A model generated the notes under the pieces. The model saw only the letters and a program-made list of their open reading frames with translations, did not search any database and had not been told where the DNA came from. From a virus, in the IMG/VR virus record IMGVR_UViG_3300006028_000002, positions 1 to 64,000 of that record: DNA of 64,000 nucleotides; one strand, 5' to 3'. Positions 6,639-57,569 of this stretch are shown in pieces. How positions within the stretch are numbered: position 1 is the stretch's first letter; each line of letters starts with the position of its first letter. Both the position numbers and the translations under genes were made by a program.

Positions 6639-6639
6639 T

Positions 6640-7484: not shown

Positions 7485-7513
7485 CTACCCCGGTTTGTTT
7501 GCTTTATACTATT

Positions 7514-7633: not shown

Positions 7634-7642
7634 GTCATCACC

Positions 7643-8101: not shown

Positions 8102-8121
8102 GCTGCCATTCCTTTCGGTGC

Positions 8122-32939: not shown

Positions 32940-33040
32940 GAGGTGATGCATGTCAGATCCCACGGGAGACCAGATAGGTGATCTCATCGATGAGGAGACC
33001 GCGCAAGCTGAGCACGATACGTTGAGCGGAGGCTAGATCG

Positions 33041-33295
33041 ATGATCGCGTTGCGCGAGCAGGCCAAAGAACTGGCGCCGCAGTTGCCTGACCCCGGTGCC
33101 TTGGTATTACGTGCCAAGCTGGCCGGGGGAACGTCGTGGCTATTGTGGCTGATTACCGCGGCGGCCTGCGGGATGATTGCTTGGCAGACCGGTCAAATCC
33201 TGGCCACCCAGCGCAGGGTGCGCGAGATCCTGGAAAGAATGGAGGATAACCAGGTGCTCTCCGGTGGTCGCTCAGTGAGAGAGTACAGCCGGTAA
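33041..33295 (+). CDS. small membrane protein
   Basis: One TM, GGAGG RBS. Confidence 0.6.
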   Translation: MIALREQAKELAPQLPDPGALVLRAKLAGGTSWLLWLITAAACGMIAWQTGQILATQRRVREILERMEDNQVLSGGRSVREYSR

Positions 33296-33356
33296 CACCA
33301 TCCCCCCGGTCACGGGATACTGATTCCCATGACCGGGGGTACCCAGTGGAGGAGAC

Positions 33357-33659
33357 ATGAATTTTAAGGATGCAGCGAAGATTGCTATTGAGGCCGCATG
33401 GGATGGCTATCGAACGCACCCGGCGGGAACCACCGTCACCCGTACCGTAGGGCCGTTGCATATGGGACTCGTGACCGAGCCCACGATGGCTGACGTTGAC
33501 CGGTGCTATTCGGTGCACGGAGTAGCGAGCGCGCGGGATCCCATGGTGCTGGTGCAATGGGGGGTCGGGCAGCGCAGCTGGGAATACACCCAGGATCTCC
33601 GGATCATCCCGGCCAACAACAACCCGCAACCCCGTGACATTCAGGCCGAGAAACCATGA
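33357..33659 (+). CDS. hypothetical protein
   Basis: GGAGGAG RBS. Confidence 0.65.
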   Translation: MNFKDAAKIAIEAAWDGYRTHPAGTTVTRTVGPLHMGLVTEPTMADVDRCYSVHGVASARDPMVLVQWGVGQRSWEYTQDLRIIPANNNPQPRDIQAEKP

Positions 33660-33994
33660 CATCCGTGATGGATCCGCACCGACCGGGGCGACTACCGCCG
33701 GGTGGGAAAACACACCGCCCGAATGAATGGCCACGCTGTCTCTCGCCTGCGCACGGCAATCCCGGACCCCGGGTACCACCCTCAGCTATTCACCCGTTTT
33801 GCGAACGCGCGGGCGAATACGGCGCGTTCTACGCCGCGGCGCACACCCATGGCCCACCGTGCTGCCCCGGCGAATGTGGCGGGTGCGGGGTGTGTCTCGA
33901 TCGGGTCGCCAGCATGTGTGATCGCTGCGCCGTGTGCGAAGGCTGCTGCCCGGGTCATGGCAAAGACGGCAAAGATGAGACCGGTGGACAATGA
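33656..33994 (+). CDS. Cys-rich metal-binding protein A
   Basis: CCPGECGGCGVCLDR..CDRCAVCEGCCPGH; ATGA overlaps. Confidence 0.7.
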   Translation: MTSVMDPHRPGRLPPGGKTHRPNEWPRCLSPAHGNPGPRVPPSAIHPFCERAGEYGAFYAAAHTHGPPCCPGECGGCGVCLDRVASMCDRCAVCEGCCPGHGKDGKDETGGQ

Positions 33995-34314
33995 TGGGCC
34001 GGCACTCGCGCAACGGCACAACGGATCGCTCGGAATGGGTACCGTGCCGTGCGCACGATTGCTGGGTACGCGTGCCGGTGGCAGCCATTCACCGTAGCCC
34101 CGGGTGTTTCCGGGCAATGGCCGGAGCAGCGCTGCTGGAGGCGGTCCGCAGACATCCGGTGCCATGCTGCCCGGGTAGCTGCCTCGGTTGCGATCGGTGC
34201 CTCGATCGGTTGGGATATCCGCAGCACTGGTGCATACGCTGTGACCGCTGCATCAATTGTTGCCCGGGACATGAGAAAGGTATGGCCAATGGAGGGACCG
34301 CAGGTAATGAATAA
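33991..34314 (+). CDS. Cys-rich metal-binding protein B (paralog of A)
   Basis: CCPGSCLGCDRCLDR...CIRCDRCINCCPGH. Confidence 0.7.
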   Translation: MMGRHSRNGTTDRSEWVPCRAHDCWVRVPVAAIHRSPGCFRAMAGAALLEAVRRHPVPCCPGSCLGCDRCLDRLGYPQHWCIRCDRCINCCPGHEKGMANGGTAGNE

Positions 34315-34690
34315 TACCGAGCTTCATTTGCTGCGGCAGACATTCCACTCCTATGTGGACGTCGCGCCAGTGGAGAAACTGATGGAGCTGGTGCGCTACC
34401 TCGCGGGTGCCCATCCCCGTTACCGGAATCAATTCGAGTGGCTGCACGTTGTGTGCCAGGCGGAGGGTGATGCGGCACCTATTCCGGCGCCCCTGGTGCT
34501 CTGTGAGGAGATCTATGACGAGCTGGAGGCCCTGGATCACATCCTGCGCTGGGTGTTGACGCAGACGGACAATAGGGCGTACCGCGCGGACATCCGCAAG
34601 CACCGCCGTGTCCTGGAACGCCTGCACAAACAGTTAGGCTTACGGCACGTGGCACCCCGACCGGTACCGGAAAGCGAGAAGATTAAATGA
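34307..34690 (+). CDS. hypothetical helical protein
   Basis: Start refined to MNNTEL. Confidence 0.65.
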   Translation: MNNTELHLLRQTFHSYVDVAPVEKLMELVRYLAGAHPRYRNQFEWLHVVCQAEGDAAPIPAPLVLCEEIYDELEALDHILRWVLTQTDNRAYRADIRKHRRVLERLHKQLGLRHVAPRPVPESEKIK

Positions 34691-35025
34691 CCGTGGCCAG
34701 CCTGACCACTCCCCAACAGCGGCCCCGCGAACTGCTGGGATTCATCTCGATTGCGGCGATGTTCGGCGTCACCCCCAACACGGTGTACGTATGGATCAGC
34801 CGGGGCAACGATCCCGACTGGCCGGGGGTGCCGCCGTTTCCCGAGCCCGACTACGTGACGCGTACAGGGAGCGGACTGGTGCTGAGCTGGGAACCCGAGC
34901 GGGAACCGGAGATCCGGGCCTGGAGAAAGAGGCTACCCGGGCGGGGCTGGCGGAAAGGCAAGCGGGGGGATCCGCGCGTTATCCAGAGGAAAGGCACAAG
35001 CCATGACCGAATCGAAACCACCTAA
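34687..35025 (+). CDS. AlpA/excisionase-like HTH protein
   Basis: IAAMFGVTPNTVYVWISR..FPEPD...W....IRAW. Confidence 0.75.
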   Translation: MTVASLTTPQQRPRELLGFISIAAMFGVTPNTVYVWISRGNDPDWPGVPPFPEPDYVTRTGSGLVLSWEPEREPEIRAWRKRLPGRGWRKGKRGDPRVIQRKGTSHDRIETT

Positions 35026-35224
35026 AGCCGCAGTAGAACGGCATCACGAGCCCTACATCATCACGGGCGCTAGCGGCGATTTCCACCAGGCACGCTGCGA
35101 CACCCCCGGATGCACATGGGAGAGCCCCGAATTCGATGGCCGCCGATACCTCGCCGAGAATGCCGCAGAGGAACACATCAGAGCATGTGCCTACTGGCCC
35201 GGGACGGCACCGCATGTCGACTGA
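35003..35224 (+). CDS. small C2H-type hypothetical protein
   Basis: ARC..PGCTW...AEEH. Confidence 0.55.
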   Translation: MTESKPPKAAVERHHEPYIITGASGDFHQARCDTPGCTWESPEFDGRRYLAENAAEEHIRACAYWPGTAPHVD

Positions 35225-35474
35225 TCCTATGACCCGTAGGCAGGAGCGTCTCATCGAGGGATACGGACGCTATGATCCGCCGCACCAGGATCACATCGGC
35301 TGCCCTCGCGCCAAAACAGATATGACGCCCTGCGTCGCCCGGGACGGCATCGCCGCGTGCGGGGATAATCACCGTTGCATCGGTTGCCAACGGCACCCAG
35401 CTGAGTTGCTCACTGAACTGGTGCGCACCGTCACGTCACTGGTGCTACTGGCCAACGAAACGGATTTGCTGTGA
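35214..35474 (+). CDS. Cys-containing hypothetical protein
   Basis: CPRAKTDMTPCVARDG..C...CIGC. Confidence 0.6.
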   Translation: MSTDPMTRRQERLIEGYGRYDPPHQDHIGCPRAKTDMTPCVARDGIAACGDNHRCIGCQRHPAELLTELVRTVTSLVLLANETDLL

Positions 35475-35635
35475 TGACATCGCGCGTATGGGTAATCCCT
35501 CTTTTTGCGGCGGTGTGCGGTAGTTGCTTAGCGATGCTCACCTACGCGTTGGGCGCACCGTTTGTGGTGGCTCTGATCATGTCTATTTCTGTGACGTTGT
35601 TCGTGGGATTCATGATGTTGCTGATCATAAGCTGA
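35474..35635 (+). CDS. small membrane protein (53 aa)
   Basis: Almost wholly hydrophobic; TGATG overlap. Confidence 0.5.
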   Translation: MTSRVWVIPLFAAVCGSCLAMLTYALGAPFVVALIMSISVTLFVGFMMLLIIS

Positions 35636-35654
35636 AATGGAGTTGCTGTGAATG

Positions 35655-36821
35655 CTAGGGCTGGTACATCCGGCCGCTGTTGATCCAACCCCGGGCCCGT
35701 GGCCAGCGCGTCGCCAGATGCAGCACGGTGCGCTGCCGCGCTCGATCCACCCGATTCTGCGGGGTCATGAAACGCATGGTGGCGGTCACGTCGCGCTGGT
35801 CACGCAGCAATGCCGGGATCCGTTGGGTGGTGTAGCTGCGCAGAATCTCGGGCGACATATCACCGGTGATCACCCGGGCCAGTCGCGGTGCCAGGCACGC
35901 TACGTCGGCAATACCTGAGTTGAGCCCGCGTGCCCCGAAAGGCGCTACCAGGTGCGCGGCGTCCCCGGCGAAAAACACACGCGGTCGGGTAGTGGGGTAG
36001 TGCAGTTGCGGGAGGAGCCGCTGGTGGAATCGGTAGACGGAGGACCACACGAGTCGGTACGGGATCGAGCCGAACAACTGATCCAGCTTGACGCGCGCCA
36101 AGGTGTCGATGACTTCCGGGTCGATACCGCGTCCCAGCTGCCAGTCAACTCGCCAGATGTTGCTGGGTTGGGGATGGATGAGCACGGTGGACCCCGGATG
36201 GCATGGGTGGTCGAAATGGAATCGCGGTTCAGCTGGCCAGTCGACTGCGGCACGCACGTCGGTGATGAGGAACTGATCGGGGTAGGAGGCCCCTGGAAAC
36301 GGCAGGCGCATTGCCTCGCGCATCGTGGAACGGCACCCATCGGCGGCCACCACGTAGCGGAAGTTACAGGTACGCAGTGAAGGATCGCCGGTATCGACGG
36401 CCAGCGTCACCGAGGCATCATCCACGCCGAGCCCGACCACCCGGCATCTCCAGCACAGCTCAATGAGTTCGGATGCCTCTGCCGCATCGAGCAGCAACGT
36501 CTCCAGCGCACTCTGCGGGTAGTTGGTCCACAGTGGCAGCTCACCCGGCGCCGGCTCGGGCAGGATCAGGGTGTGCACCTCGGCCTCGCGGTAGAAGGTG
36601 CGCCGTACCCGCCACGCAACGCCGCCCCCCACGATGAATGACGTCACCCCCAACGGTTCCCACGTCGTCAGGGCCGAGCGGTGCAGCGCGATGGCTCGGG
36701 AACCCACGCACCCCCGCTCGCCGGCATCCAGCACGGTGCTGGGCACCCCGCGGCGGGCCAGCTCCAGCGCCAGCGTCAACCCGACCGGACCTGCGCCGAC
36801 AATGCCCACGGGTGCGCTCAC
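35655..36821 (-). CDS. FAD-dependent monooxygenase (aromatic-ring hydroxylase, group A)
   Basis: GAGPVG, ADGCRS, FFAGDAAH..PFGARGLNSGIAD. Confidence 0.92.
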   Translation of the reverse strand: MSAPVGIVGAGPVGLTLALELARRGVPSTVLDAGERGCVGSRAIALHRSALTTWEPLGVTSFIVGGGVAWRVRRTFYREAEVHTLILPEPAPGELPLWTNYPQSALETLLLDAAEASELIELCWRCRVVGLGVDDASVTLAVDTGDPSLRTCNFRYVVAADGCRSTMREAMRLPFPGASYPDQFLITDVRAAVDWPAEPRFHFDHPCHPGSTVLIHPQPSNIWRVDWQLGRGIDPEVIDTLARVKLDQLFGSIPYRLVWSSVYRFHQRLLPQLHYPTTRPRVFFAGDAAHLVAPFGARGLNSGIADVACLAPRLARVITGDMSPEILRSYTTQRIPALLRDQRDVTATMRFMTPQNRVDRARQRTVLHLATRWPRARGWINSGRMYQP

Positions 36822-37008
36822 GGCGCGGGAGCATAGCGGTGCGTTTATCAGCCACTACCCGGTGTGGCGTGCGCACGTCTTAAAGTCCGGTTAGGGGGAT
36901 CTTAGTGCTGACTTAGTCCTGACCGCGTGCGCACGGCTAAGCCTCGGTTTCGTCACTTTTCCACAACCTCATCGTTAGTCGGGCACCCGGTGCTCGGGAG
37001 GGGGATTC

Positions 37009-38340
37009 ATGGCTTACCGTCGCAGCTTTCGCATCGCCGCAGCCCTGCTGGCGTGTCTGGGACTACTGTCTTGCACCCCGGCGAACGTGCGCAGCTACCG
37101 ACCGGCCGCCGCAGCGGCCCCCACATTCGATCACGTTCTGTACTGGGATTCGGTGCTGCTCGATGCCTTCCGCCGAGCCGGCGGTCCCCCCACCACGCTC
37201 ACCCGAGCCGCCGCGATCATGCATGTGGCCATGTACGATGCCGCCAATTCGATCACTCCGATCGGCACCCCGTACCTGGCCCGTTATCCGGGTGGGGGCA
37301 GTCTGGACGCCGAGATGGACCGGGCGGCCTACGACAGTTTGCGCGGCGTGTTCCCCGACCAGGACATGCTCACCCCCTATCTGCTCGCCCAGCCGGCCAA
37401 CTCGACAACCCTGCTGGCCAGTGACAGCCCGGGTGCGCGCTCGGCTGCCGCGGTGCTTGCCAACCGATTCGATGACGGCGGCAACGCGCCCATGACCTAT
37501 GCCGCGGTGCAGTCCCCCGGGCATTGGCGACCCACCGGATCCGGCGAGGCAGCCAGTCCCGAGTGGGGCAGCGTCAAACCGTGGACCATGACCGCTGCCG
37601 ACCAGTTCCGGCCACCCGATCCGCTCGGGTACAGCGATGGTGCGGCGATGCTGCGCAGCAAGGCGTACGCCGATCAGGTACGCGAGGTATCAAGTCTAGG
37701 TCGGTGGAACTCAACTACTCGAACGGCTGACCAGACCAACATCGCGCGGTTTTGGGCGGAGGATGTCGACGGCACCGAGAAGCCCCCCGGCCAGCTGTTG
37801 GCTTTTACCCAGATCATCGCGCGTAATCACGGCTTGACCGAGGCACAGAACGCCCGGCTGTTCGCGCTGACATCAATGGGCCTGGCCGATGCGGCGATCA
37901 CCGCCTGGCAGCGCAAGTACTACTCGCCGCTCAACGTATGGCGGCCCGAGACGGCGATCCAGCAGGCCGACCTTGACGACAATCCGGCCACCGTCGCCGA
38001 CCGGGACTGGCACCCGCTATCGAGCGATGCCAATGGCGTGCCGTTCACCCCACCTTTCCCCAGCTACACGTCCGGGCATTCCACCATGGGCGGTGCCTGG
38101 TCAGCGGTGATGGACGGTTTCTTTGGTACCGACCGGGATAGTTTCATCGGCACCAGCGATGACATCCACTGCATTGGCTGCACCCGGGTGTACGGAAGCT
38201 ACACGCAGGCCGGATTCGAGGACGCCATCAGCCGGGTCTTCAACGGCGTTCATTACAAAATGGATTGTATCGAGGGTTACAATTCTGGGCGCAAGGTGGG
38301 GGCGTGGACGGTCAATCGCTACCTGCTGCCAGCTCGTTAG
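37009..38340 (+). CDS. vanadium-dependent haloperoxidase / PAP2-family lipoprotein
   Basis: Lipobox LLSC; WQRKYY...WRP, PFPSYTSGH, SRVFNGVHY. Confidence 0.88.
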   Translation: MAYRRSFRIAAALLACLGLLSCTPANVRSYRPAAAAAPTFDHVLYWDSVLLDAFRRAGGPPTTLTRAAAIMHVAMYDAANSITPIGTPYLARYPGGGSLDAEMDRAAYDSLRGVFPDQDMLTPYLLAQPANSTTLLASDSPGARSAAAVLANRFDDGGNAPMTYAAVQSPGHWRPTGSGEAASPEWGSVKPWTMTAADQFRPPDPLGYSDGAAMLRSKAYADQVREVSSLGRWNSTTRTADQTNIARFWAEDVDGTEKPPGQLLAFTQIIARNHGLTEAQNARLFALTSMGLADAAITAWQRKYYSPLNVWRPETAIQQADLDDNPATVADRDWHPLSSDANGVPFTPPFPSYTSGHSTMGGAWSAVMDGFFGTDRDSFIGTSDDIHCIGCTRVYGSYTQAGFEDAISRVFNGVHYKMDCIEGYNSGRKVGAWTVNRYLLPAR

Positions 38341-38929
38341 TGCTCCCCATGATGGCCTGATAGTACCGATCTGAGATGGCTTGACGATCGTACGGGTTAC
38401 CACGTTTCTTAGCCCAGTGCACTGTGTAGCGTGTCTTCTCACATGCTAGACACTCCCGATGATTATTTTTCAGTGCTTGAGGCGATAGATTGGGCGCGCG
38501 TAATGCATGACCGTATGGGCAGTGTGTGCGCTTCTGCATATGATGCTTGCCATTACGGGACCGGTCGCGCATGTTGTCGGCACGAGTGCCCCAGTACAGG
38601 TTTGTGTCCACGTTGTTTTCTGGATCGTCGTCTCGATGGCAACTTTCGTGGTTATCGGGGCATGGGCCCACGAAGGCTGTCAACACGAGAACATGAACTA
38701 GGCAGCATGTACGTTCTCCAGCGACACACAAAGATACTCGTTGGTGTGCGGTTTGTTTGTTTGCGTACGCCTTGAGTACTCGGCCTGGGCGTAGTGATGT
38801 CTGGTCACAGTGCGGGTTGTAAACCATCCGATCCAAGCTGCGGACACGGCCGAGGTTTGATACCTCATAGAATCCCTCGAAACCGACAACAGGTAGCCAG
38901 CGCTCGATCACACTGCTAAGATCTTCCAC
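38312..38929 (-). CDS. NUMOD4-HNH homing endonuclease
   Basis: ERWLPVVGFEGFYEVSNLGRVRS; VHVLVLTAFVGP..CHRDDDPENN..NLYWGT; THCPYGH. Confidence 0.92.
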   Translation of the reverse strand: MEDLSSVIERWLPVVGFEGFYEVSNLGRVRSLDRMVYNPHCDQTSLRPGRVLKAYANKQTAHQRVSLCVAGERTCCLVHVLVLTAFVGPCPDNHESCHRDDDPENNVDTNLYWGTRADNMRDRSRNGKHHMQKRTHCPYGHALRAPNLSPQALKNNHRECLACEKTRYTVHWAKKRGNPYDRQAISDRYYQAIMGSTNELAAGSD

Positions 38930-38964
38930 GTTCGACTCCCAGAAGTCGGATCACTGCCCTGGGC

Positions 38965-39198
38965 TTGTTAGCGCAAGCGCCGGGGCACCTAACTCTGACC
39001 GTAGCAGAGGTCGGTGGTTTAGTGCTCGACTGGGATGACGCCGAGTTGGCCCGCAAGATTCGGGAGTGGGCGATGCGTGCCCGTCCCAACGCTGCCGCAC
39101 TACGCCGGGTCTGCGCCGAGTTCGAGCTGACCGAGCTGGCCGATGAGCTGCTCGCCGAGCGCGCTGCCGAGCAACCCGAGCTGGAGACCTCCGCCTGA
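38965..39198 (+). CDS. hypothetical protein
   Basis: High-GC3 helical ORF; start uncertain. Confidence 0.4.
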   Translation: MLAQAPGHLTLTVAEVGGLVLDWDDAELARKIREWAMRARPNAAALRRVCAEFELTELADELLAERAAEQPELETSA

Positions 39199-39307
39199 TT
39201 GGCGCCTTTCCTCCCGCTATATGCCCGTGGCTGAAGGCTGCGCTGCCACCAGCGCTGCTCCATTAGCGTGAATCTTGCAACGCGTAGCCCGTACCTGGTC
39301 AGAGGGC

Positions 39308-39336
39308 TTGTAAAACGTAACCAGTCGCAGTACAGT
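39308..39336 (+). promoter_or_regulatory. sigma-A type promoter
   Basis: TTGTAA-N17-TACAGT. Confidence 0.65.
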
Positions 39337-39342
39337 AAAGGT

Positions 39343-39590
39343 ACAACAGAAAATGAGAAAAGCCGAAAGGCCCCCAGTCCCTTAACAACTCAAAAGGTTC
39401 CCGATCACCGGAAGCATCGGGGGTGTGCGGGTAGCTAACGTGAACTGGACCCGCCCAGCACACCAGCTGAGATCCCGCTCCGGCTAGCCCCCCTGAACCA
39501 CACCCGCTCGAAACGCGCAACTATTAGCCCGGACAAACACGGGAAGCATCTAGACGCAGCCGAGAGCGGGTCCACCTAAACATTCAACGC
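39343..39590 (+). ncRNA. candidate structured RNA or long 5' leader
   Basis: GCC-GAAA-GGC; CCCGAT/ATCGGG; GGTGTGC/GCACACC with GCGGGT/ACCCGC; CCCGCTC-CGGCT/AGCCG-A-GAGCGGG; CCCG/CGGG; no convincing ORF. Confidence 0.5.
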
Positions 39591-39606
39591 TTAGAATCGA
39601 GACATC

Positions 39607-39780
39607 ATGACTACCGCCTATCGGGTGATAGCTAAAGCTAGGCGCGGATATGATATCCCTGACTGGTACAGCAGTAAGTCTTGTACTTGGGATCAAGCAC
39701 AGCAGCTAGTGGAAAAACTACACCAATGGTGCGATGACCCGGCAATCCTCACGATCAATATCAAAGAATGCACCGAATAG
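39607..39780 (+). CDS. small hypothetical protein (57 aa)
   Basis: My translation MTTAYRVIAKARRGYDIPDW...; starts in an 18-bp repeat. Confidence 0.55.
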   Translation: MTTAYRVIAKARRGYDIPDWYSSKSCTWDQAQQLVEKLHQWCDDPAILTINIKECTE

Positions 39781-39799
39781 TACTAAGAATCGAGACATC

Positions 39800-40006
39800 A
39801 TGAGGTCTACACAGATATATCGAATCCGCATCGATCAAATAGAACCTAGCCTAGTTCGCACCCAGGTGGAAGCCTGGCGAGTGGCTGCAAATTCTCAAGA
39901 TGAGGCATTTGCTATCGGCCAACGCTACTGGACTGAGTGGATGCATCAGCATCCGGGTACGATCAGCTCATTGAGTATCAATCAGCCAAGTCACAGTGAG
40001 ATGTAA
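39800..40006 (+). CDS. small hypothetical protein
   Basis: Starts in the second copy of the 18-bp repeat. Confidence 0.55.
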   Translation: MRSTQIYRIRIDQIEPSLVRTQVEAWRVAANSQDEAFAIGQRYWTEWMHQHPGTISSLSINQPSHSEM

Positions 40007-40034
40007 GATTGCTCGATAGGGAGATAGATCATAC

Positions 40035-40232
40035 ATGGCACATCTCGTTTTCATGGCCCTGCGATCGGAACAACACATTGATATGGGTGGTTCCTGCGGC
40101 CACACTTCACCGGACGGTTTCTTTGATGATTGTCTGTGCCGAGATGGTTGGTACATTCCGGCCGGCATCGAAGACGGGTACACCGCAGGTTACTGCGACC
40201 GTAACCACACATATGATAATGCTCCGTTTTAA
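40035..40232 (+). CDS. small Cys-containing protein
   Basis: GGGAG RBS. Confidence 0.45.
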   Translation: MAHLVFMALRSEQHIDMGGSCGHTSPDGFFDDCLCRDGWYIPAGIEDGYTAGYCDRNHTYDNAPF

Positions 40233-40426
40233 TAAGAAACCAAGAACGGAGTAATCATGAGCACGATGCCGACCGGCCAGCCCAATCCCCATCCGTCCGG
40301 GCTGGCCTGGTATCGGCTGCGCTCCGGTGAGTGGGTGCAAGCCGCTGCTGACGATCCGCGCTGGATGAAAGGCGCCACCCGCAACCATAGACGCAAGTCC
40401 CCCCGCAAAGCAAAGCGAGATGATCG

Positions 40427-40621
40427 ATGACTGATCCCACCCTGCCCCGCGTGTTCGTCAAAAGTACGGGCCGCTGGGAATACCAGAAGATCTGCGCTAA
40501 CCCGGACTGCCCGGTGCGGACGTTCACCTCATTCCGCCGGGACACCAAATACCACCACGTGAACTGCCGTATGGCCGCATCCCGGCGACGGCGCGCGGAG
40601 AATCACCCGAACAGCACGTAA
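40427..40621 (+). CDS. small zinc-finger protein
   Basis: CANPDC..F...YHHVNCR..ASRRR. Confidence 0.6.
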   Translation: MTDPTLPRVFVKSTGRWEYQKICANPDCPVRTFTSFRRDTKYHHVNCRMAASRRRRAENHPNST

Positions 40622-40748
40622 CACCCAGACCTCGCCATCCGATAAGGATCCTCCTGCGCCCCCTGGTATCGGCGTGCGCACGGCTACATAGTCTTGTCGG
40701 TGGCAGCGCTCGTCAGGCAGCGCCCCCAACCCCCTCGGAGATGACCCC

Positions 40749-41414
40749 ATGACCAGCACCGACACCCTCACCCGCGAGCGTTGGCTAGAGCTCGCGATCG
40801 ACACCTACTGGCGCCCCCGGTTCGCCGAGCTCGGCTACCCCCTGCCCGAGCGCTTTCACGTCTCGGTGGGTTTCGGCCACGGCGCCAAGCGGGAATCCGC
40901 GAACATCGAGGCGCAGTGCTGGTCCCGCACGGCCAGCGCCGATGCCGTCAACCACATTTTCATCTGCCCCACCGTGGCCAGCACCACACACGTACTCGCC
41001 CTGCTGGGCCATGAGCTGGCGCACGCCGCGCTCGATTCGGATGCCGGGATCCAGGACGGCCACGTAAAGCGGTTCGCCGCGATCATGACGCAGCTCGGTT
41101 TCGAGGGTCCGATGACCTCAACGCAGACCACCGCGGAGCTGGAGGTAGACCTGGTGATCGTGGCCACCGAGCTGGGCGACTACCCGCACGGCGCGCTTGA
41201 TGTCACCCGGGCCCGCACCCGCACCGAGGTACCGGTGCCCCGCGGTGGTGGCGGTGGCGGTCCCAAAATCCGCACCGGTCCCCCGCCGCAGCGCTCGCGC
41301 CGCATCAAGTGCGAATGCCCGTGCTGCGGGTACGCGGTCGACACGACGCGAAAGTGGATCGCCCTCGGTGCGCCGCGCTGCCCAGGTGGCACCGAAATGT
41401 TGATCCTCAGCTGA
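40749..41414 (+). CDS. SprT-like zinc metallopeptidase with C-terminal zinc ribbon
   Basis: HELAH...GH..F; CECPCC...PRC. Confidence 0.8.
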   Translation: MTSTDTLTRERWLELAIDTYWRPRFAELGYPLPERFHVSVGFGHGAKRESANIEAQCWSRTASADAVNHIFICPTVASTTHVLALLGHELAHAALDSDAGIQDGHVKRFAAIMTQLGFEGPMTSTQTTAELEVDLVIVATELGDYPHGALDVTRARTRTEVPVPRGGGGGGPKIRTGPPPQRSRRIKCECPCCGYAVDTTRKWIALGAPRCPGGTEMLILS

Positions 41415-41562
41415 ATCAACCTCCTAAGAGATGAGAAACGCATGATCCATATCATCATCCCCCCTGTCCTTGTCCTCATCGTGGCCTACCTACTGCTCGT
41501 GCATTTTGCGCCCGGGATTCCCTGGGCCACCTTCCTTTTTAGTCACTAAGAAACCAGGAGTT

Positions 41563-41751
41563 ATGGAAGACGACAAACCCACCACTAAGCGCTACACCGC
41601 CGGATTTGTACCAGACGATTATGTGAGACCGGAAATGGGTGTCTGGGAAACCCCCGACTGGGTACAGCAGGCCACTTTTCAGCCCGATGGCGTGCGCACC
41701 GGCTCAGACGGTCGGCTGCTCACCGAGGGTTGCACCGGATTTGGAGGATGA
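41563..41751 (+). CDS. hypothetical protein
   Basis: AGGAG before MEDDKP. Confidence 0.5.
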   Translation: MEDDKPTTKRYTAGFVPDDYVRPEMGVWETPDWVQQATFQPDGVRTGSDGRLLTEGCTGFGG

Positions 41752-41755
41752 GTGA

Positions 41756-41947
41756 ATGAGTAAACCCAACAGCAACGATGAGACCGCAGTTGTGCAAGAG
41801 CGGTTTGTGATCCATGTCTGCGTCCCCCTGCCCGCGTCGGATCAGGTCATGCACGTACGCGGGAAGTTGAAAGAATTGATCGGTGACGCCGTAGCGGCTG
41901 CGGTATGGAACTCCTACGGCGAAAGGTCAGAGGTGATAGTCCGATGA
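41756..41947 (+). CDS. hypothetical protein
   Basis: GGAGG RBS. Confidence 0.55.
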   Translation: MSKPNSNDETAVVQERFVIHVCVPLPASDQVMHVRGKLKELIGDAVAAAVWNSYGERSEVIVR

Positions 41948-42276
41948 GTAATCTGATTGACGTCGATATCGAGATCGGGGAACAGTCCGTCTATGACGAG
42001 CGCCGGGTAGCACTGCGAATCAGCGGCACCGAGTCAATGCCCGCGCAGCCTAGTGGCCGTTTTCAGCCGCACGGCATCATCATCGTGTACGGCAAGCCGC
42101 GCGGTGAGCAGTGGCGCTGCATCCGGGTGGAAGTGTACGGACCCAAATTAAAGACCGGTGGTGGTTATTCTGCCACGATCGCAAAAACCGTCTGGTGCGG
42201 CCATGACGACATGCCGAACTGGGTACACGGTTTCGTGGGCAAATACTGGCCGCTGCAAGATCACGGAGGAAGATGA
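41944..42276 (+). CDS. hypothetical protein
   Basis: ATGA overlap; last gene of the rightward block. Confidence 0.6.
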   Translation: MSNLIDVDIEIGEQSVYDERRVALRISGTESMPAQPSGRFQPHGIIIVYGKPRGEQWRCIRVEVYGPKLKTGGGYSATIAKTVWCGHDDMPNWVHGFVGKYWPLQDHGGR

Positions 42277-42381
42277 CGCGCCATGCAAACCGTCCAGGAT
42301 GCGAAGACGTCCCCCGGTCAGGTTTCGGACCGACTGCTCTGACCCGACCGGGGGTCTCCCATCCACAGAGAGGCACCCATG

Positions 42382-43680
42382 CTACCCGGTGGGGGCCTTC
42401 ACCCGGGGTCGCAGTACCAGCAGGGCATCATCCCGCGGGCCCCGGGTCATGATGTAGCGGCCAGGGGGGATGGCCGGGGCCCCTGGTGGGCGAGCCCAGT
42501 CCTCAAACCGCTGGAGGGTTTGCGCCAGCACCAGCGTGCCGATCATCAACGCCATGTCTTTGCCGATGCAGGACCGCTTACCCGAGCCGAACGGCTGCCA
42601 CGTGGCCCGCTGGCCAGCGCTGAGCGAAGCGCGGAACCGGGTCGGGTCAAACGTCTCCGGATCCTGCCACGCCCGTGGATTGCGCCCGAGCGCGTGCGGC
42701 ACCAGGAAAATCTGATCCCCGGGCCGCAGCTCGAATTCACCGAGCTGGGTGGCTGCGGCGACGTTGCGGAAAAACGCCGGGAATGACGGGTGCAGTCGCA
42801 GGGTCTCAGTCAGCACCGCCGCGGTGAACTCCAGCCGGGGCAACTGCTCGACGCGCGGTGGTTCGGTGCCGCAGACCTCGGCCACCTCCCAGTACAGGTC
42901 GTTGCGCAGCCCGGGGTCGGCTGCCAGGTACAGGCACGCCCAGGCCATCGCGGACGAACTCGACTCGTACCCGCCGAGCAGCAGGATCACCACCTGGTCG
43001 TGGATCTGCTCGGCGCTCAGAGGGGGCTCGGCGGTGTACATCCGCCACAACAGATCCTCGCCCGGACCCTGCTCCCAGCGCTCGGCCAGCAGTCGCGCCA
43101 CCTCGGCATGCAGCGCAGCCGTAGCGCGTCGGTATTCCCGGGCCGCCGGCAGCCACAGGGGCAGAAACACTCGATCGGCCATGGTGCCGAACACCGGTTG
43201 CGTCAGCTCAATGAGCCGGTGCAGCCGGGCGCCGGAGCCGAACAGGTGCCGCAGCAACACCTCCAGATTGAGCGCCCGCAGCTCGGTGGCCAGCGGGATG
43301 GGTAGTGCGGTGTTCCAGGTGTCCATCCGGGCGCCCCAGAGCTCTACAGAGGACTCGACGGCGCCGCGCAGCCCCTCCCGGGTAAACGAGGGATTCATCA
43401 ACCCCCGGATGCGTCGCCATTCGCCCGGGTCGTTGGTGGTGAAGATCGCGTGTGCGCCCACCGGCTGGCGAATCGTGGCGTAGATGGGGCCGCCTTTGTC
43501 GAACGCCTCCGCGGAATACCCGGTGAGCACTTGGCGGTACAGGCCCGGGTCGGAGACCACCCACCAGGACCGCCGGCCCGGAATCGGCAGCCGGGCGATG
43601 CCGCCCCCGACGATGGCCGCCGCGGTGAGGTACTCGGTGGGATCCCGGTACCGCAGGCTTTTGGCCAGCTCGCGCAGCAT
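42382..43680 (-). CDS. cytochrome P450
   Basis: WRRIR (C-helix), GGYESS (I-helix), ETLR (ExxR), FDPTRF, FGSGKRSCIG (heme Cys). Confidence 0.96.
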   Translation of the reverse strand: MLRELAKSLRYRDPTEYLTAAAIVGGGIARLPIPGRRSWWVVSDPGLYRQVLTGYSAEAFDKGGPIYATIRQPVGAHAIFTTNDPGEWRRIRGLMNPSFTREGLRGAVESSVELWGARMDTWNTALPIPLATELRALNLEVLLRHLFGSGARLHRLIELTQPVFGTMADRVFLPLWLPAAREYRRATAALHAEVARLLAERWEQGPGEDLLWRMYTAEPPLSAEQIHDQVVILLLGGYESSSSAMAWACLYLAADPGLRNDLYWEVAEVCGTEPPRVEQLPRLEFTAAVLTETLRLHPSFPAFFRNVAAATQLGEFELRPGDQIFLVPHALGRNPRAWQDPETFDPTRFRASLSAGQRATWQPFGSGKRSCIGKDMALMIGTLVLAQTLQRFEDWARPPGAPAIPPGRYIMTRGPRDDALLVLRPRVKAPTG

Positions 43681-43703
43681 GAGCGTGAACCCTACCGGAG
43701 ACG

Positions 43704-43744
43704 CAAAAAGACCCCCATCTCCCGTGCGCAGGGAAATGGGGGCC
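43704..43744 (-). terminator. intrinsic terminator immediately upstream of the P450
   Basis: Minus strand GGCCCCCATTTCCC-loop-GGGAGATGGGGGTC followed by TTTTT. Confidence 0.7.
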
Positions 43745-43844
43745 TCGGTGGGGGTGTCTTCAGTTGTGGGAGGAGAACATTCTCGGAACCGTCGTGCTCA
43801 GCGATGGTGGCCGGCCCTGGAAGCCTGACCGGCCGAGGCAAAGC

Positions 43845-44084
43845 CTACACCAGCGCCAGCACCAGCCGGATAGCGATCGCGGTCAGTGCCGCTGCGGTCA
43901 GGCAGGCCAGGCACATCCGGGGGGCCGGCGTGCGCACGCGGTGCCGGGCGGTCTCCGGTGAGCGGGTCAGCGCCAGCGTGTAGGCCGAGCGCAACCCGGG
44001 GTCGGAGAGCATTGCCCAGGTGATGACGGTTGCGGCGGATGGGCCGGTGCCAGCACGGCGTTTGCGCGGGGTCCGGGCGCTCAC
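43845..44084 (-). CDS. small membrane-anchored protein
   Basis: Basic N-terminus, C-terminal TM. Confidence 0.45.
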   Translation of the reverse strand: MSARTPRKRRAGTGPSAATVITWAMLSDPGLRSAYTLALTRSPETARHRVRTPAPRMCLACLTAAALTAIAIRLVLALV

Positions 44085-44180
44085 GTTCAGCAGAGGTTAG
44101 TGGCCAGGTAAGTTTTCGGTAATAAGCGCAGCGTAGTGCACCCGTTAGCTGCGTGATGCACGTGCCGATGTGCTGTGCGG

Positions 44181-44687
44181 TTACTTGCGGTGCCGGCCCC
44201 CGGTGCTGGCGGGTGTCCGGGTGCGGATGCCCACGGTTGCGGTAACTCTGCCGGGTCGCTGCCCGTTCGGCCTAGTCACGGAGAGCACCAGCGCGCCCAG
44301 CAGCGCCACCAGCCCGGCGGTGCGGGCCGGGTCCAGGTATTCGCGCATCGAGGTGTGCGAGCCCACCACCACCGCGCCGAGCACCACCACTGCGGCGACC
44401 AGCCAGATTTTGGCGACCAGCCAGCGGGGGCAGCCGCGCGCCTGGTACGGCCGGGCCAACACCGCGCCCGAGCCCACGGTGGCCGCCGCGCAGGGGATCA
44501 GCACCGCCCACTGCACGGTGTGCATCAGGTTGTTGAGCGCGCCCAGCGCGGGGGCATCCACCGGCCAGGTAGCCAGTCCCAGATCGAGCGCGAGCGCGGC
44601 GGCCAACACGCCCATCCAGCCCACCATGCCGATCAGATGCACGGTGAGCCAGATGGCGCGCCGCCCCCTCCCCAGCGGACGTGTCAT
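44181..44687 (-). CDS. 4-TM membrane protein (DUF2269-like)
   Basis: WLTVHLIGMVGWMG, SG..L, WLVAK, LSVTRP. Confidence 0.7.
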   Translation of the reverse strand: MTRPLGRGRRAIWLTVHLIGMVGWMGVLAAALALDLGLATWPVDAPALGALNNLMHTVQWAVLIPCAAATVGSGAVLARPYQARGCPRWLVAKIWLVAAVVVLGAVVVGSHTSMREYLDPARTAGLVALLGALVLSVTRPNGQRPGRVTATVGIRTRTPASTGGRHRK

Positions 44688-44735
44688 GTCGAGCTAACGA
44701 AAAAACTGTCCTGGGGTTACGAGCAAGCGAGGCCA

Positions 44736-45059
44736 TCAGCGCAATCCAGCCAGCACGATAAGCGGTAACGCTGCCCATTCTTGTGCAATCGTATACTCTC
44801 TTTGCTCGGGAGAGTATTCATGCGGAGGCGAGCAACTTGACCGAACCAAACTACCGTCATTGATGTGCTTGCCAACTACGCAGATAGTTGGATACATACT
44901 GATCTTGACACCAACCCGGCCAAAAGCCATGACATACAACGGATCTACATAATCAAGCTGTTTCCACACCGAGAGCGTTACTTGCCGAGATCCAACCATG
45001 AGCACGCGTACTTCCGCAGTGAGCACCTCAACGGTGGCCGTGTTCGTCTGTGTAGGCAT
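44736..45059 (-). CDS. hypothetical phage protein
   Basis: VLMVGSRQVTLSVWKQLD; lower GC. Confidence 0.65.
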   Translation of the reverse strand: MPTQTNTATVEVLTAEVRVLMVGSRQVTLSVWKQLDYVDPLYVMAFGRVGVKISMYPTICVVGKHINDGSLVRSSCSPPHEYSPEQREYTIAQEWAALPLIVLAGLR

Positions 45060-45068
45060 GCTGTGAGG

Positions 45069-45731
45069 CTAGTGCGTCACCGGCACATTCGGCCCGAACA
45101 CGATTTGACTACCTGCGCTCGGCGGCTGGCCTGGCACCACGGGCCCGGGATTGATCGGAATCAGCGGGATGATGTTGGGATTGGTGCTGCATTGGAACAG
45201 CACGTAGGCCAGCGGCGGGATGTCGAGCTGCTGATTGTCGATCTGGAGCAGGTGGGCATCGGCCACGTAGAGATCCACACAGGTGTGCAGCCACACGGTG
45301 CGCTCGGAAGGCAACGGCAGCGGGGTGCCCGGCGGGGGCAGAATTTCCAGCGGCACGATCGGCGGCTGCTCGCGCTGCGCCGGAGCGGTGGTGGGTGGCG
45401 GGTTGTACACCGGGCCCGGTGCGGGTGCTGCGGGTGCGGGTGCTGCGGGTGCGGGTGCTGCGGGTCCAGGTGCCGGGGTCACGGGTGCCGGCCGGTTGCG
45501 CCCCAGCAGCCGATCCAGCAGGCTGCGATGCGGTGCGGGGGCAACCGGATCAGCCGGCGCGGGAGCTACCGCAGCGGCCGGGTCAGGGGTGCACAGGATG
45601 CTGCTGGGCAGCAGCTCGAACCCGGGTGCACACGGGTTGACCGGGGCCGCGTCGGCCATCCCGGGCATGGCCAGCAGCAATCCGGTAGCGGTGGCGATCG
45701 CGGCCAGTGGGGGCAATAGTCGTTTCCACAT
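45069..45731 (-). CDS. secreted Pro/Ala-rich protein
   Basis: Signal peptide ending ADA; 15-nt tandem repeat at about 45418-45465 encoding PAAPA x3; two Cys pairs. Confidence 0.7.
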   Translation of the reverse strand: MWKRLLPPLAAIATATGLLLAMPGMADAAPVNPCAPGFELLPSSILCTPDPAAAVAPAPADPVAPAPHRSLLDRLLGRNRPAPVTPAPGPAAPAPAAPAPAAPAPGPVYNPPPTTAPAQREQPPIVPLEILPPPGTPLPLPSERTVWLHTCVDLYVADAHLLQIDNQQLDIPPLAYVLFQCSTNPNIIPLIPINPGPVVPGQPPSAGSQIVFGPNVPVTH

Positions 45732-45883
45732 GCGCACTCCTGGTTGCTCGATCAGGGACTCCCTGCCCGGGATCAACGATCGAGCACCCGTCAGGATGCG
45801 CGCCAGTCTTACGGGTTGCTACAGTGTGCGGCGCCTGCGATTTCCTTGTCCCCCCTTGGCGCAGGTGATGGGTTCCCCTCAAA

Positions 45884-45934
45884 GAGTTGACCCGGCCGAG
45901 CGCACAAGACTCCACACCACGGCCGGGTCAACTC
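45884..45934. terminator. 15-bp perfect inverted repeat after the lysis genes
   Basis: GAGTTGACCCGGCCG-N21-CGGCCGGGTCAACTC. Confidence 0.6.
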
Positions 45935-45965
45935 CTGTTTCTCTACCTACCCCGGATTACATCTT

Positions 45966-46250
45966 TTAGAGCAGCCCGCCGACCAGCTTGCTGATCAGGT
46001 CGCTGGCCACCACTTGCGGAGCATTCCGCACTGGCGATACCAGTGGTGTGGCGTGGGTCGCCACTGCCTTGGCAGCGAATAGAGCAAACACCCCACCCAG
46101 TACCGGGCTGAGAATCTTGGAGATAGTCGGAGGTACCAGGCCGGAGGTCAGCACTGCCGTGGACAGCGCCGAGGCGATACCCACCACCGGGCCGATGATG
46201 TTTGCCACGTCATGGACAACCTGGGGAACGGGCGCAATGGGACTAGCCAT
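45966..46250 (-). CDS. holin-like membrane protein
   Basis: 2 TM, directly after the endolysin. Confidence 0.6.
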   Translation of the reverse strand: MASPIAPVPQVVHDVANIIGPVVGIASALSTAVLTSGLVPPTISKILSPVLGGVFALFAAKAVATHATPLVSPVRNAPQVVASDLISKLVGGLL

Positions 46251-46302
46251 GGAGAAAACCACCTTATGTGGATAATTGAGAATTGCGATATACGGGAAAC
46301 GC

Positions 46303-47256
46303 TTAAACGGTGGGCCGGGTCTCTAGACACAGGGTCGCGCCATCGGGGCACGCCGTGACATCCCAGGTCACCACCAGGTGAATCGTGCCATCGCGCAACT
46401 CCTCGAAATTGTGCGGCACCAGATTGTTAGTGTTGGGGGTCAGTGCGGTTTGATCCCACGTCCAATCGTTGATGCCTCCGGCGGCACCCTGGGCGAACAC
46501 CCGGATATAGCCGGGACCGGTCATTGAACTCGTGGCGGCTGAGAACCATGCCATGCGCTTATCTGCCGAGGCGGCTCCGGTGGGGCATTCGATGACACGG
46601 CGCCCCTTACCGGTGATGAACCATTGCTGCATATTGTCATCCTCCTGATGGCGGGCGCGGGTGTAGGGATGCTGGCCGAAATCCGGCCGTATCATTGCTT
46701 CGTTGACGTCGCAGTCAACCCCGTCCACGGTCACGGTCTTGATGTGCTGATAAATGTGCGCCTGCGGATGGATCTGGCCACCCGACCAGGCTCCAGCCTG
46801 CCACGCCCAGGTCGCGGTGCCATTGGCGAGCGCGCGTTTTACCGGGTAGAAGCCGCCATAGATGCCGACCCGCTCCACGCCAATCACACTGGCCGCGCCG
46901 CGCAGATAATCATCGATGACACCCTGCTGAGCTTCGCTGGCATCCCAGTCCGCGGAGAAATACACGGGTCGCTCGGCCGCCGGATACCCTATCTGATCCA
47001 ATTGATTCTGCGCCGAATGCGCGTCCATCACACCCGCGTTGTACCCGCCGAGCATTCTATCGGCGGTAGTTTCCCAGTTGACGATAACGGCGATTCCCGC
47101 CGCGGTGAGTGCCTGGTACTCATTTTTTGTGAGCAGCTTGCCGGGTAGTCCCGGGCCGCCGGGGGTCAGGTACCGGCAAACAAAACCGAAGCCTGCGTCT
47201 TTGATGGCGGCAGCACTCGGCACACCGCCCGCGAAATCGATGCCGTAAAGAGCCAT
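46303..47256 (-). CDS. endolysin, DUF1906/GH25-like glycoside hydrolase + C-terminal domain
   Basis: GIDF, FVCRYL, VNWE, VYFSADWD, GIYG, WQAGAWSGG, DCDVNE; start refined to MALYGID. Confidence 0.9.
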   Translation of the reverse strand: MALYGIDFAGGVPSAAAIKDAGFGFVCRYLTPGGPGLPGKLLTKNEYQALTAAGIAVIVNWETTADRMLGGYNAGVMDAHSAQNQLDQIGYPAAERPVYFSADWDASEAQQGVIDDYLRGAASVIGVERVGIYGGFYPVKRALANGTATWAWQAGAWSGGQIHPQAHIYQHIKTVTVDGVDCDVNEAMIRPDFGQHPYTRARHQEDDNMQQWFITGKGRRVIECPTGAASADKRMAWFSAATSSMTGPGYIRVFAQGAAGGINDWTWDQTALTPNTNNLVPHNFEELRDGTIHLVVTWDVTACPDGATLCLETRPTV

Positions 47257-47609
47257 TAGTCCCCCGGCCGGATGATGATTTTGTCCCGGCCTGCGGGGTT
47301 GTCCCCGTTGATGCCGGCGGTGAGCAGTTTGGAGCGCTGGGCTCTGAGCTCTGCCATGTTTTTGGTCACGGCATCCTCGTATACCGCGGGTGGGAGGTGG
47401 ATGGGCATCATGAAACTCTGTTGCAATACCTGACCGAGCACGTGCAGCGCCGCGGTGTGCAGATAGCACAGCAGCACCGGAGCCGGGCCTTGCGGGGTCG
47501 GCATGATCGCCAGCGTCACCTCGAACGCCCAGTCCTCACCCAGGGCCAGCTTCTCCACGGTCTCCCGGATGATGGGGCGCACCGATTCGAGAACTTCGGT
47601 TACAGCCAC
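47256..47609 (-). CDS. hypothetical protein
   Basis: AGGAGG RBS before GTG; TAATG overlap with the endolysin. Confidence 0.7.
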   Translation of the reverse strand: MAVTEVLESVRPIIRETVEKLALGEDWAFEVTLAIMPTPQGPAPVLLCYLHTAALHVLGQVLQQSFMMPIHLPPAVYEDAVTKNMAELRAQRSKLLTAGINGDNPAGRDKIIIRPGD

Positions 47610-47628: not shown

Positions 47629-47997
47629 CTATGCGGTGGGTGCCGGGGGTGCTGGTGCGGGCACCGGGTTGGCCGGATCGGCACCCAGGCCGCGCAGCGT
47701 CGTTTCGGTCGCCTGGAGCTTTGAAATATCGGGGGCCAGGGTGTCCATCGCGGCGGTCACCGCAGCCTGGTTACCGGAGCTGATGGCGGCCTGAAGTGCC
47801 TCCAGCTTGGTGCGGATCGAGGCGGCGTCATCGGCGAGCGCGTTGGTCACGGCATCGAGTGCGGCAAGCGTGTTTTCGGCGGTGGCCATTCTTAACTCCA
47901 ATTGTTTCAATCGGGATTCATGATCGGTGAGTTCAGTGATGATCGTGGGCAGCGCATTGACGTTGTTCAGAACCACCACCCAATCGGACAGGTTCAT
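47629..47997 (-). CDS. coiled-coil protein of the lysis region
   Basis: Start MNLSDW by ATGA overlap. Confidence 0.65.
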   Translation of the reverse strand: MNLSDWVVVLNNVNALPTIITELTDHESRLKQLELRMATAENTLAALDAVTNALADDAASIRTKLEALQAAISSGNQAAVTAAMDTLAPDISKLQATETTLRGLGADPANPVPAPAPPAPTA

Positions 47998-48230: not shown

Positions 48231-48242
48231 CGGGCCACACTC

Positions 48243-57508: not shown

Positions 57509-57569
57509 GCAGCCCACCTACCCTGTCAGATCCGGCCCCATCCCCGCATTGTGGGACACCACAAAAAAT

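Follow-up and report, generated by a model that had tools for sequence, protein, structure and literature searches.

The window analysed here comprises bases 1-64000 of an 88,063-bp virus record (IMG/VR record IMGVR_UViG_3300006028_000002) and encodes three oxidative enzymes: a short-form class-A flavin (FAD) monooxygenase of 388 amino acids (aa) at 35655..36821 on the minus strand, a vanadium-haloperoxidase-fold protein of 443 aa at 37009..38340 on the plus strand, and a soluble-type cytochrome P450 of 432 aa at 42382..43680 on the minus strand. A preliminary description of this DNA presented them as an intact, phage-borne oxidative tailoring set of the kind typical of natural-product clusters. 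The three frames are indeed uninterrupted, with catalytic motifs present, and they lie within the phage genome and not in a host flank; the word 'set', however, is not supported, and it appears reasonably probable that the three are cargo genes acquired and transcribed separately from one another.

The monooxygenase, which has no signal peptide, matches PF01494 (FAD_binding_3; E 8.3e-47, 160.5 bits) and carries the GAGPVG, DG (ADGCRS) and GDAAH motifs, with motifs for both FAD and NAD(P)H present. Its AlphaFold model (predicted local distance difference test score, pLDDT, 86.8) superposes on p-nitrophenol 4-monooxygenase (PnpA; 6ain) and 6-hydroxy-3-succinoylpyridine 3-monooxygenase (HspB; 7da9) with template modelling (TM) scores of 0.80-0.82; both are of similar length and alike in fold, but only 23% identical to the phage protein. 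The GxGxxG, DG and GD(AAH) motifs together with the PHBH-type fold place it amongst the class-A flavoproteins. A flavin-dependent halogenase was considered as an identity and rejected, as the match is to the PF01494 hydroxylases.

By sequence the closest family is NF006002 (PRK08132), against which the monooxygenase scores 369.1 bits, below the cut-off of 416, over profile positions 26-409 of 552. In the alignment the phage protein stops where the 520-630-aa long forms of NF006002 continue into a C-terminal domain; this thioredoxin-like domain of the bacterial relatives is missing from it. Having neither the curated score nor the full architecture, the protein would not count as a member of the subfamily, to whose long forms it is 44-54% identical. 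The cut-offs of equivalog families are likewise missed, with 102.2 of 800 bits for rifampin monooxygenase and 73.4 of 650 and 69.1 of 700 bits for the aklavinone hydroxylases DnrF and RdmE. In a tree of 66 rows, eight short forms (377-393 aa) make up a long-branched clade with full SH-aLRT support (100), separated from the 57 long forms; one more short row, belonging to a 1.6-kb contig, falls amongst the latter and is probably a fragment. No match to DUF2783 was found in the phage, nor in the control genomes.

Two bacterial settings of related monooxygenases were examined, neither of which is a homogentisate operon. In a Hamadaea genome a 52%-identical monooxygenase lies beside regulators and a pirin, and the ten genes scanned next to the Hamadaea and Saccharothrix relatives comprise dehydrogenases, regulators and housekeeping genes, with no synthase amongst them; the statement that these enzymes are typical of natural-product clusters is thus too strong. 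The Saccharothrix genome (L104, ~4817-13096) places its 44%-identical long-form monooxygenase next to a P450, an aldehyde dehydrogenase, a short-chain dehydrogenase and a GMC oxidoreductase. The P450 of this oxidative cluster is 32% identical to the phage P450.

The sole Pfam match of the protein encoded at 37009..38340 is PAP2 (PF01569; 31.4 bits, cut-off 27.2), and its structure-bank sequence matches are all vanadium haloperoxidases (best 4cit, E 1.2e-27; 1idq, E 5.4e-18). Three blocks of residues, K303...R312-P313, S355-G356-H357 and S408-R409...H415, align with 4cit and with the Curvularia chloroperoxidase 1idq and are invariant in 11 of 11 aligned homologues; the Lys, Arg, Ser-Gly-His, Arg and His of these blocks we take to be the vanadate-binding residues. 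The structural model (pLDDT 79.6, predicted TM score 0.82) aligns over its whole length with 4usz (TM 0.70/0.75, E 4.9e-17) and gives TM scores by query of 0.62-0.66 to 1vnc, NapH3 and 3w36, whereas acid phosphatases align over approximately 230-260 columns only, with TM scores by query of 0.22-0.28. As modelled, the full-length helical fold would exceed the size of a PAP2 acid phosphatase and corresponds to that of a vanadium-dependent haloperoxidase (VHPO). Fold and residue blocks are common to the phage protein, the Zobellia iodoperoxidase (4cit/4usz), the Curvularia inaequalis enzyme (1idq/1vnc) and the Streptomyces NapH type (3w36, 8cxl), although the Zobellia enzyme (4usz) is 24% identical to the phage-encoded protein, and the Micromonospora haloperoxidases, at ~560 aa, are longer than the phage form.

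The N-terminus of the haloperoxidase (MAYRRSF...) has, when read by eye, an Arg-Arg pair, a hydrophobic stretch (KD15 2.25) and a lipobox-like LLSC, the Cys position of which is kept in the two closest homologues and absent from the next five; the protein is thus probably an exported lipoprotein. According to passages of PMC11312541, most bacterial VHPOs carry an N-terminal export signal, lipoprotein-type signals included, which the phage N-terminus resembles by eye, and they occupy variable, mobile settings, as does the phage gene. The same passages report that secreted bacterial haloperoxidases, here compared by their published description, brominate quinolone signals of other bacteria and that 5 of 13 lie near phage-type integrases. 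Among the papers listed in our literature search, none describes a phage-encoded vanadium haloperoxidase. Phage TM4 is said, in a passage of the review PMC9317374, to make haloperoxidase-like proteins; a tblastn search with the window haloperoxidase among phage records gave no mycobacteriophage match, and the TM4 protein is probably an enzyme of another type.

In a tree of 63 rows from a quick search, the window haloperoxidase pairs with that of a related-phage contig (L005, below) with support of 100. Both belong to a clade of eight short forms, all of them metagenomic (support 100), whose sister group (93) comes from Streptomyces, Kitasatospora and Nocardiopsis. The nearest cultured relatives are named vanadium-dependent haloperoxidase by NCBI, and the actinomycete homologues are 41-51% identical to the phage protein. 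A haloperoxidase-like protein 31% identical to that of the window is also encoded on a 7-kb contig labelled as a giant-virus metagenome-assembled genome (MAG; L002:964-2163).

The P450, an intact frame and the only P450 gene of the genome, matches PF00067 with E 1.4e-50 (172.9 bits, cut-off 22.8) and has the heme loop FGSGKRSCIG, ETLR as its ExxR motif, and GGYESS, in which the I-helix pair is Glu-Ser and not Glu-Thr; the motifs and the Pfam score together identify it as a cytochrome P450. The named families that match it best are terpenoid-oxidising P450s: CYP170A1 (3dbg) and the pentalenene oxygenase and albaflavenone monooxygenase families are its nearest named kin, with scores far below the cut-offs for the latter two (153.5 of 800 and 152.4 of 700 bits, respectively). 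An exhaustive HMMER search returned a closest relative of 42% identity, with approximately 15 cluster representatives at E < 1e-55; the named relatives are bacterial MAGs assigned to Actinocatenispora, Ktedonobacteraceae, Polyangiales and Saccharimonadales, on contigs of up to 264 kb, and 401 sampled Actinomycetes genomes contained no match at E 1e-50 or better. No ferredoxin-type redox partner (Fer4_15, Fer4_13, Fer2) was matched across the phage genome. In this respect the protein resembles the P450 of Mycobacterium phage Adler, likewise an intact soluble enzyme from a phage of an actinobacterial host and without a redox partner gene, to which it is 26.6% identical; passages of PMC9405906 describe viral P450s in general, that of Adler included, as lacking such genes. 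Within the closest subfamily of the phage P450, 8 of 12 aligned members lack the Arg of ExxR (...VLH or similar); the phage protein and three others keep ETLR or EALR.

Their arrangement bears directly on whether the three genes are a set. Embedded in the rightward block of small genes but encoded on the opposite strand, the monooxygenase diverges from the haloperoxidase across a 187-bp spacer (36822..37008), whilst the P450, 4 kb away, comes last in the leftward late block, beyond the lysis genes and the genes of Pro/Ala-rich and membrane proteins. The three enzymes would therefore occupy at least two, and probably three, transcription units. Their start signals also differ: the haloperoxidase ATG is preceded by a strong ribosome-binding site (GGGAGGGGG), in contrast to the monooxygenase GTG and the P450 ATG, which each have a hexamer 8 nucleotides (nt) upstream (TATGCT and TAGGGT, respectively) and no Shine-Dalgarno sequence. 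A TAnnnT hexamer 8 nt before a start that lacks a ribosome-binding site occurs at 8 of 129 crude gene starts, compared with 2.3% of all positions. As a pattern, the two hexamers suggest separate leaderless transcripts.

Composition divides the genes further. Amongst the 73 genes of at least 100 aa, the G+C content at third codon positions (GC3) averages 0.732 (standard deviation 0.055), and the three highest values cluster together: 0.90 for a 168-aa membrane protein, 0.86 for the P450 and 0.85 for a SprT-like gene. The monooxygenase (0.79) and the haloperoxidase (0.77) lie approximately within one standard deviation of the mean, and an HNH gene between haloperoxidase and island stands at 0.54. 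The high-GC3 island, 40749-44687, suggests one recent arrival from a donor of higher GC content; because an ordinary pair, a high island and a low HNH gene stand side by side, these differences point to at least three separate arrivals.

The linkage of the three genes was also sought in relatives. A single metagenome scan yielded 21,338 bases of a 48,458-bp contig from a related phage (L005), which carries a haloperoxidase 82.6% identical in protein and 77% in DNA to that of the window. The divergence at synonymous sites (dS) is 0.94 and that at non-synonymous sites (dN) 0.137, and the ratio dN/dS of 0.146 indicates that the gene is under purifying selection; shared tail and late proteins of the two phages (47629-48878 and 55559-57517 in the window) are only 32-48% identical. 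In L005 the haloperoxidase sits amid late-gene homologues, at a genome position other than that in the window, and is followed within 25 bp by a homologue of a 77-aa gene that in the window lies at 38965..39198 on the plus strand (71% identity over 48 aa; function unassigned, no Pfam match). Because this pair is conserved in L005 amid different surroundings, it behaves as a small conserved cassette, the position of which would shift between phages. The 21,338 bases of L005 hold no monooxygenase, P450 or HNH gene, neither of the first two occurring within 10 kb on either side of the haloperoxidase.

Bacterial neighbourhoods give the same picture. Amongst 80 loci, mostly of Micromonospora, Streptomyces and Saccharothrix, with a haloperoxidase 41-51% identical to that of the phage and up to 10 kb of sequence on each side, none has a related P450 (E 1e-5 or better), one has a monooxygenase, 31% identical, and none carries a counterpart of the 77-aa, membrane-protein, HNH or SprT-like genes. 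The preliminary description had proposed gene trees and homologue neighbourhoods as a check on its own claim; these give the genes separate histories, and the linkage of the three was not seen elsewhere. It had also remarked that no scaffold synthase is visible, with which we agree: the only frame of more than 840 aa is the replicase and PF19086 (terpene synthase) has no match, these being the synthase searches made. Neither a conserved co-occurrence nor a nearby scaffold synthase, as would be expected of a biosynthetic tailoring set, is thus in evidence. The features of cargo genes, or morons, by contrast, are present: the enzymes fall in trees amongst or beside cellular sequences and are patchily distributed, and the -10-like hexamers fit as a pattern.

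A separate observation on L005 concerns its first 2 kb (L005:1-2082), approximately 8 kb from the haloperoxidase, which encode an oxidative pair of the type associated with ribosomally synthesised and post-translationally modified peptides: a protein of the MbnB/TglH/ChrH family (PF05114, E 6.5e-95) with a DUF2063 protein (E 2e-14) after it and, before the pair, a Cys-rich open frame that matches nothing in Pfam. No match to PF05114 occurs in the genome to which the window belongs.

The 187-bp spacer between monooxygenase and haloperoxidase contains two copies, at 36868 and 36926, of the 10-bp palindrome CGTGCGCACG, of which the 88-kb genome has 16 copies; 100 first-order Markov shuffles averaged 0.43 copies and never exceeded 3. 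The other copies in the window are at 2876, 15417, 17106, 30853, 34048, 40673, 43929, 49393 and 58735, and those of the genome beyond it at 68963, 72564, 75113, 83466 and 84761. One of these sites precedes the SprT-like gene by 76 bp, another falls in the spacer upstream of the P450, and two are near the integrase; the copies at 34048 and 72564 overlap GTG start codons. Several intergenic copies have the longer form GGCGTGCGCACGG. With crude gene calls, ten of the 16 copies lie inside genes and at most six are intergenic. L005 contains one copy, a number equalled in 12 of 100 shuffles; because it is not enriched there, the palindrome is, as judged from the two sequences, specific to this phage rather than shared with L005.

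All three enzymes are rare in phages. In a tally over 50,697 phage records, relatives of the P450 were found in three, at no more than 31% identity (two matches to Adler, at 26.6%, and one to a Pseudomonas phage, aligned over 39% of the length), of the haloperoxidase in one at 25% identity, and of the monooxygenase in two Acinetobacter 'phage' entries at 25.5%. The PHROG families, scanned with the monooxygenase and the haloperoxidase, gave no match to either. Seven pattern scans of IMG/VR yielded only the giant-virus contig with the 31%-identical haloperoxidase-like gene, and nothing related to the P450, monooxygenase or terminase; as such scans rest on few peptide patterns and may miss records near to the window, they indicate rarity at most and not absence. 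A megablast search of 35000-45000 against phage records was also without a match.

The location of the genes inside a phage is well supported. The record, which has direct terminal repeats, is rated 100% complete by CheckV, an exact 50-bp repeat stands at both ends, and PHROG and Pfam scans reveal a normal tailed-phage layout. A 1764-aa primase-polymerase (the replicase), a helicase and an FtsK-like protein occupy the left part; a rightward block of small genes extends from ~29 kb to 42 kb on the plus strand; and a leftward late block runs from the terminase (75433-76929) through portal, head protease, tape measure and tail genes to the endolysin (46303..47469, minus strand; phrog_13480, E 9.2e-36; PF08924, Rv2525c-like glycoside hydrolase domain, E 2.9e-20), which marks its lysis end. 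The three enzymes thus have replication genes to their left and lysis and virion genes to their right, as had been claimed. A tyrosine integrase is encoded at 83263-84591 (64.8 bits, cut-off 27.1); since it is present, the phage is probably temperate and lysogenic conversion, which the preliminary description had raised, stands as a possibility. Terminases of Rhodococcus, Mycobacterium, Gordonia and Arthrobacter phages are 33-36% identical to that of this phage, and those nearest relatives of the cargo genes that bear names are actinomycetes, for which reasons the host is likely an actinomycete-type bacterium.

Misassembly was examined with an independent assembly. In the Logan assembly of a rhizosphere metagenome (run X1), which may be the source sample, a single 88,025-bp contig spans 32000-48000 with zero differences and an even depth of ~26. 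Its ends fall at 45436-45447, within a 15-bp tandem repeat, and not at the ends of the record, which is how a circular or circularly permuted genome behaves; the three enzyme genes are well inside it. A soil run from another study (X2) contains small contigs ~90-96% identical to several parts of the stretch, including part of the P450 (42428-42956), the SprT-like gene and the endolysin. The P450 piece is ~95% identical, and five of its six listed differences are synonymous, a small sample given that 40 of 130 differences were listed. The listed X2 rows include no pieces over the monooxygenase or the haloperoxidase, and we make no claim that its phage carries them; some bins, that of the HNH gene included, are without cover, from which we draw no inference. 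Of the doubts that the preliminary description attached to its own account, misassembly is thus contradicted by the independent contig and decay is countered for the haloperoxidase by purifying selection, with the synonymous P450 differences pointing the same way within their small number.

Taken together, the reading that we consider probable, though by no means certain, is that the three are real, working cargo genes of a temperate phage of soil actinomycetes, separately acquired and transcribed and not inherited together as a pathway. They share with the morons and auxiliary metabolic genes of temperate phages the habit of single genes of cellular origin placed between phage modules, often antisense, with their own start signals and a patchy distribution; the oxidative types of enzyme found here are unusual amongst these. 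By sequence score, none of the three reaches a curated family with a known substrate; export of the haloperoxidase, the chemistry of each enzyme, the timing of expression and any benefit to the phage are inferred. The haloperoxidase, with its signal and lipobox, would probably be attached to the cell membrane from the outside, where, given vanadate, H2O2 and halide, it could make hypohalous acid or halogenate a bound substrate; its targets would then be outside the cell, and may be signals, antibiotics or peroxide. It appears to be a long-standing, selected gene that moves between phages as a cassette with the 77-aa gene. The monooxygenase may be a cytoplasmic NAD(P)H/FAD hydroxylase of a phenol-like small molecule, from a fast-evolving short-form clade, and the P450, presumably also cytoplasmic, would use ferredoxin and reductase of the host and looks like a later arrival within the high-GC island.

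Several points weigh against separate acquisition. The palindrome could be an operator shared by the three genes, with one regulator tying them, or else some other recognition site. Three rare genes and a class-V aminotransferase in one genome are hard to accept as chance and could mean a shared purpose. The view of L005 covers 21,338 of 48,458 bases, and a monooxygenase or P450 could lie elsewhere on that contig; the settings of the seven other short-form monooxygenases and of the nearest P450 relatives fall outside the co-occurrence comparison; and the close relative in X2 does carry the P450. An alternative reading is a coordinated kit for counter-defence or lysogenic conversion, co-regulated through the palindrome and acting on antiphage or antibiotic molecules (such as anthracyclines, angucyclines or rifamycin-like compounds) that the host or bacteria around it produce, with the haloperoxidase working outside the cell and the two oxygenases inside. 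Copies of the palindrome upstream of all three genes and near the integrase speak for it, as do the meeting of three phage-rare genes in one genome and the natural-product-type MNIO and DUF2063 pair of L005. The wider family of the monooxygenase includes aklavinone hydroxylases, rifampin monooxygenase and angucycline oxygenases, its PDB matches include PgaE, CabE and Rox, and anthracyclines are antiphage molecules according to passages of PMC13250531; the scores to the named families are nevertheless weak (69-102 bits against 650-800), and those same passages name no phage enzyme that counters anthracyclines. The palindrome, moreover, also lies inside many unrelated genes and is not enriched in L005, the genes do not co-occur in L005 or in the 80 bacterial loci, their orientations, start signals and composition differ, and no cut-off of a family with a known substrate is reached. 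Counter-defence, which the preliminary description had proposed, has family-level resemblance in its favour and nothing beyond it, and we regard a kit of this sort as unlikely. The boldest version, in which a lineage of soil actinophages keeps a lipid-anchored VHPO as a surface tool against extracellular antiphage metabolites or signals, wired through a palindromic operator to the hydroxylase and the P450, would be the first enzymatic counter by a phage to chemical defence; it is a long shot.

Two further explanations concern the nature of the genes themselves. The 'haloperoxidase' may be an exported acid phosphatase of the same superfamily, serving phosphate scavenging or dephosphorylation of the envelope without halogenation: PAP2 is its lone Pfam match, it has no NCBIfam match, the active-site blocks are common to both types of enzyme, and the title of structure 3bb0 describes an apo-chloroperoxidase that catalyses dephosphorylation. 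The full-length VHPO fold, to which acid phosphatases correspond in part only, the best structure-bank sequence matches, which are all haloperoxidases, and the name given by NCBI to the nearest cultured relatives argue the other way, and we hold this identity to be improbable. That the genes are neutral passengers or an artefact, being carried or misjoined host DNA or decaying genes of no benefit, would be in keeping with the composition of the P450 island, unlike that of the remaining genome, and with the lack of a close phage relative in the virus-contig scans. It conflicts, however, with a second assembler arriving at the same circle with even depth and zero differences, with intact frames and complete motifs, with a haloperoxidase dN/dS of 0.146 over a dS of 0.94, and with a P450 that recurs at ~95% identity in the soil run of another study with mainly synonymous differences amongst those listed; we consider it very improbable.

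The haloperoxidase is the most solid and the newest element of the finding. Sequenced phages very rarely encode enzymes that oxidise small molecules, and this complete genome, from a rhizosphere sample, has three of them; phage cargo genes reveal what limits the success of a phage or its lysogen in nature. If it is true that the haloperoxidase acts on molecules outside the cell, soil phages would be directly involved in the chemical warfare and signalling of antibiotic producers, and might also answer the antiphage defences that actinomycetes mount with small molecules. Read plainly, as three separate cargo genes, the finding still yields a phage-borne clade of VHPOs, a clade of short-form flavin hydroxylases and a P450 at the edge of its families (42% identity), and all three enzymes can be cloned and tested.

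The neighbouring genes complete the description of the locus. An HNH/NUMOD4 homing-type endonuclease (38312..38929, minus strand; NUMOD4, E 4.4e-12; HNH_3, E 1e-10) overlaps the 3' end of the haloperoxidase gene including its stop codon. It looks like the insertion of a free-standing homing endonuclease between the haloperoxidase and the 77-aa gene, which are adjacent in L005. A 221-aa gene (40749..41414, plus strand) with a weak match to the SprT-like metalloproteases (PF10263, E 0.0012; 19.1 bits, below the cut-off of 25.6) forms the left edge of the high-GC3 island. Upstream of the P450 are a possible 79-aa gene or non-coding spacer (43845..44084, minus strand; GC3 0.88, no Pfam match), which contains the palindrome copy at 43929, and the gene of the 168-aa protein (44181..44687, minus strand), which has four predicted membrane helices and no Pfam or NCBIfam match. 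Atlas leads for this protein are, by features, DUF2269-like clusters (0.88-0.89) and, by structure, CopD/CtaG-like models (TM score 0.69). The idea that it forms a conserved membrane-partner module of the P450 was dropped, as 401 Actinomycetes genomes gave three weak matches (E ~1e-6) and the Atlas values were below 0.9.

Other searches of the region added little. No tRNA was found, the single Rfam match on 33000-47000 was under the gathering score and was disregarded, and a consensus scan gave four promoter-like and six terminator-like sites, no excess over shuffles (3.2 and 6.6, respectively). Beyond the window, the genome encodes a class-V aminotransferase or cysteine-desulfurase-like protein of cellular type (77887-79281; L004:2888-4282; PF00266, E 1.4e-46), which also matches a PHROG family of unknown function. 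The 15-bp tandem repeat in which the X1 contig ends (45418-45477) lies within the gene of a secreted Pro/Ala-rich protein (45069-45776, minus strand), and contigs of both X1 and X2 have 3-base insertions and higher depth at this repeat.

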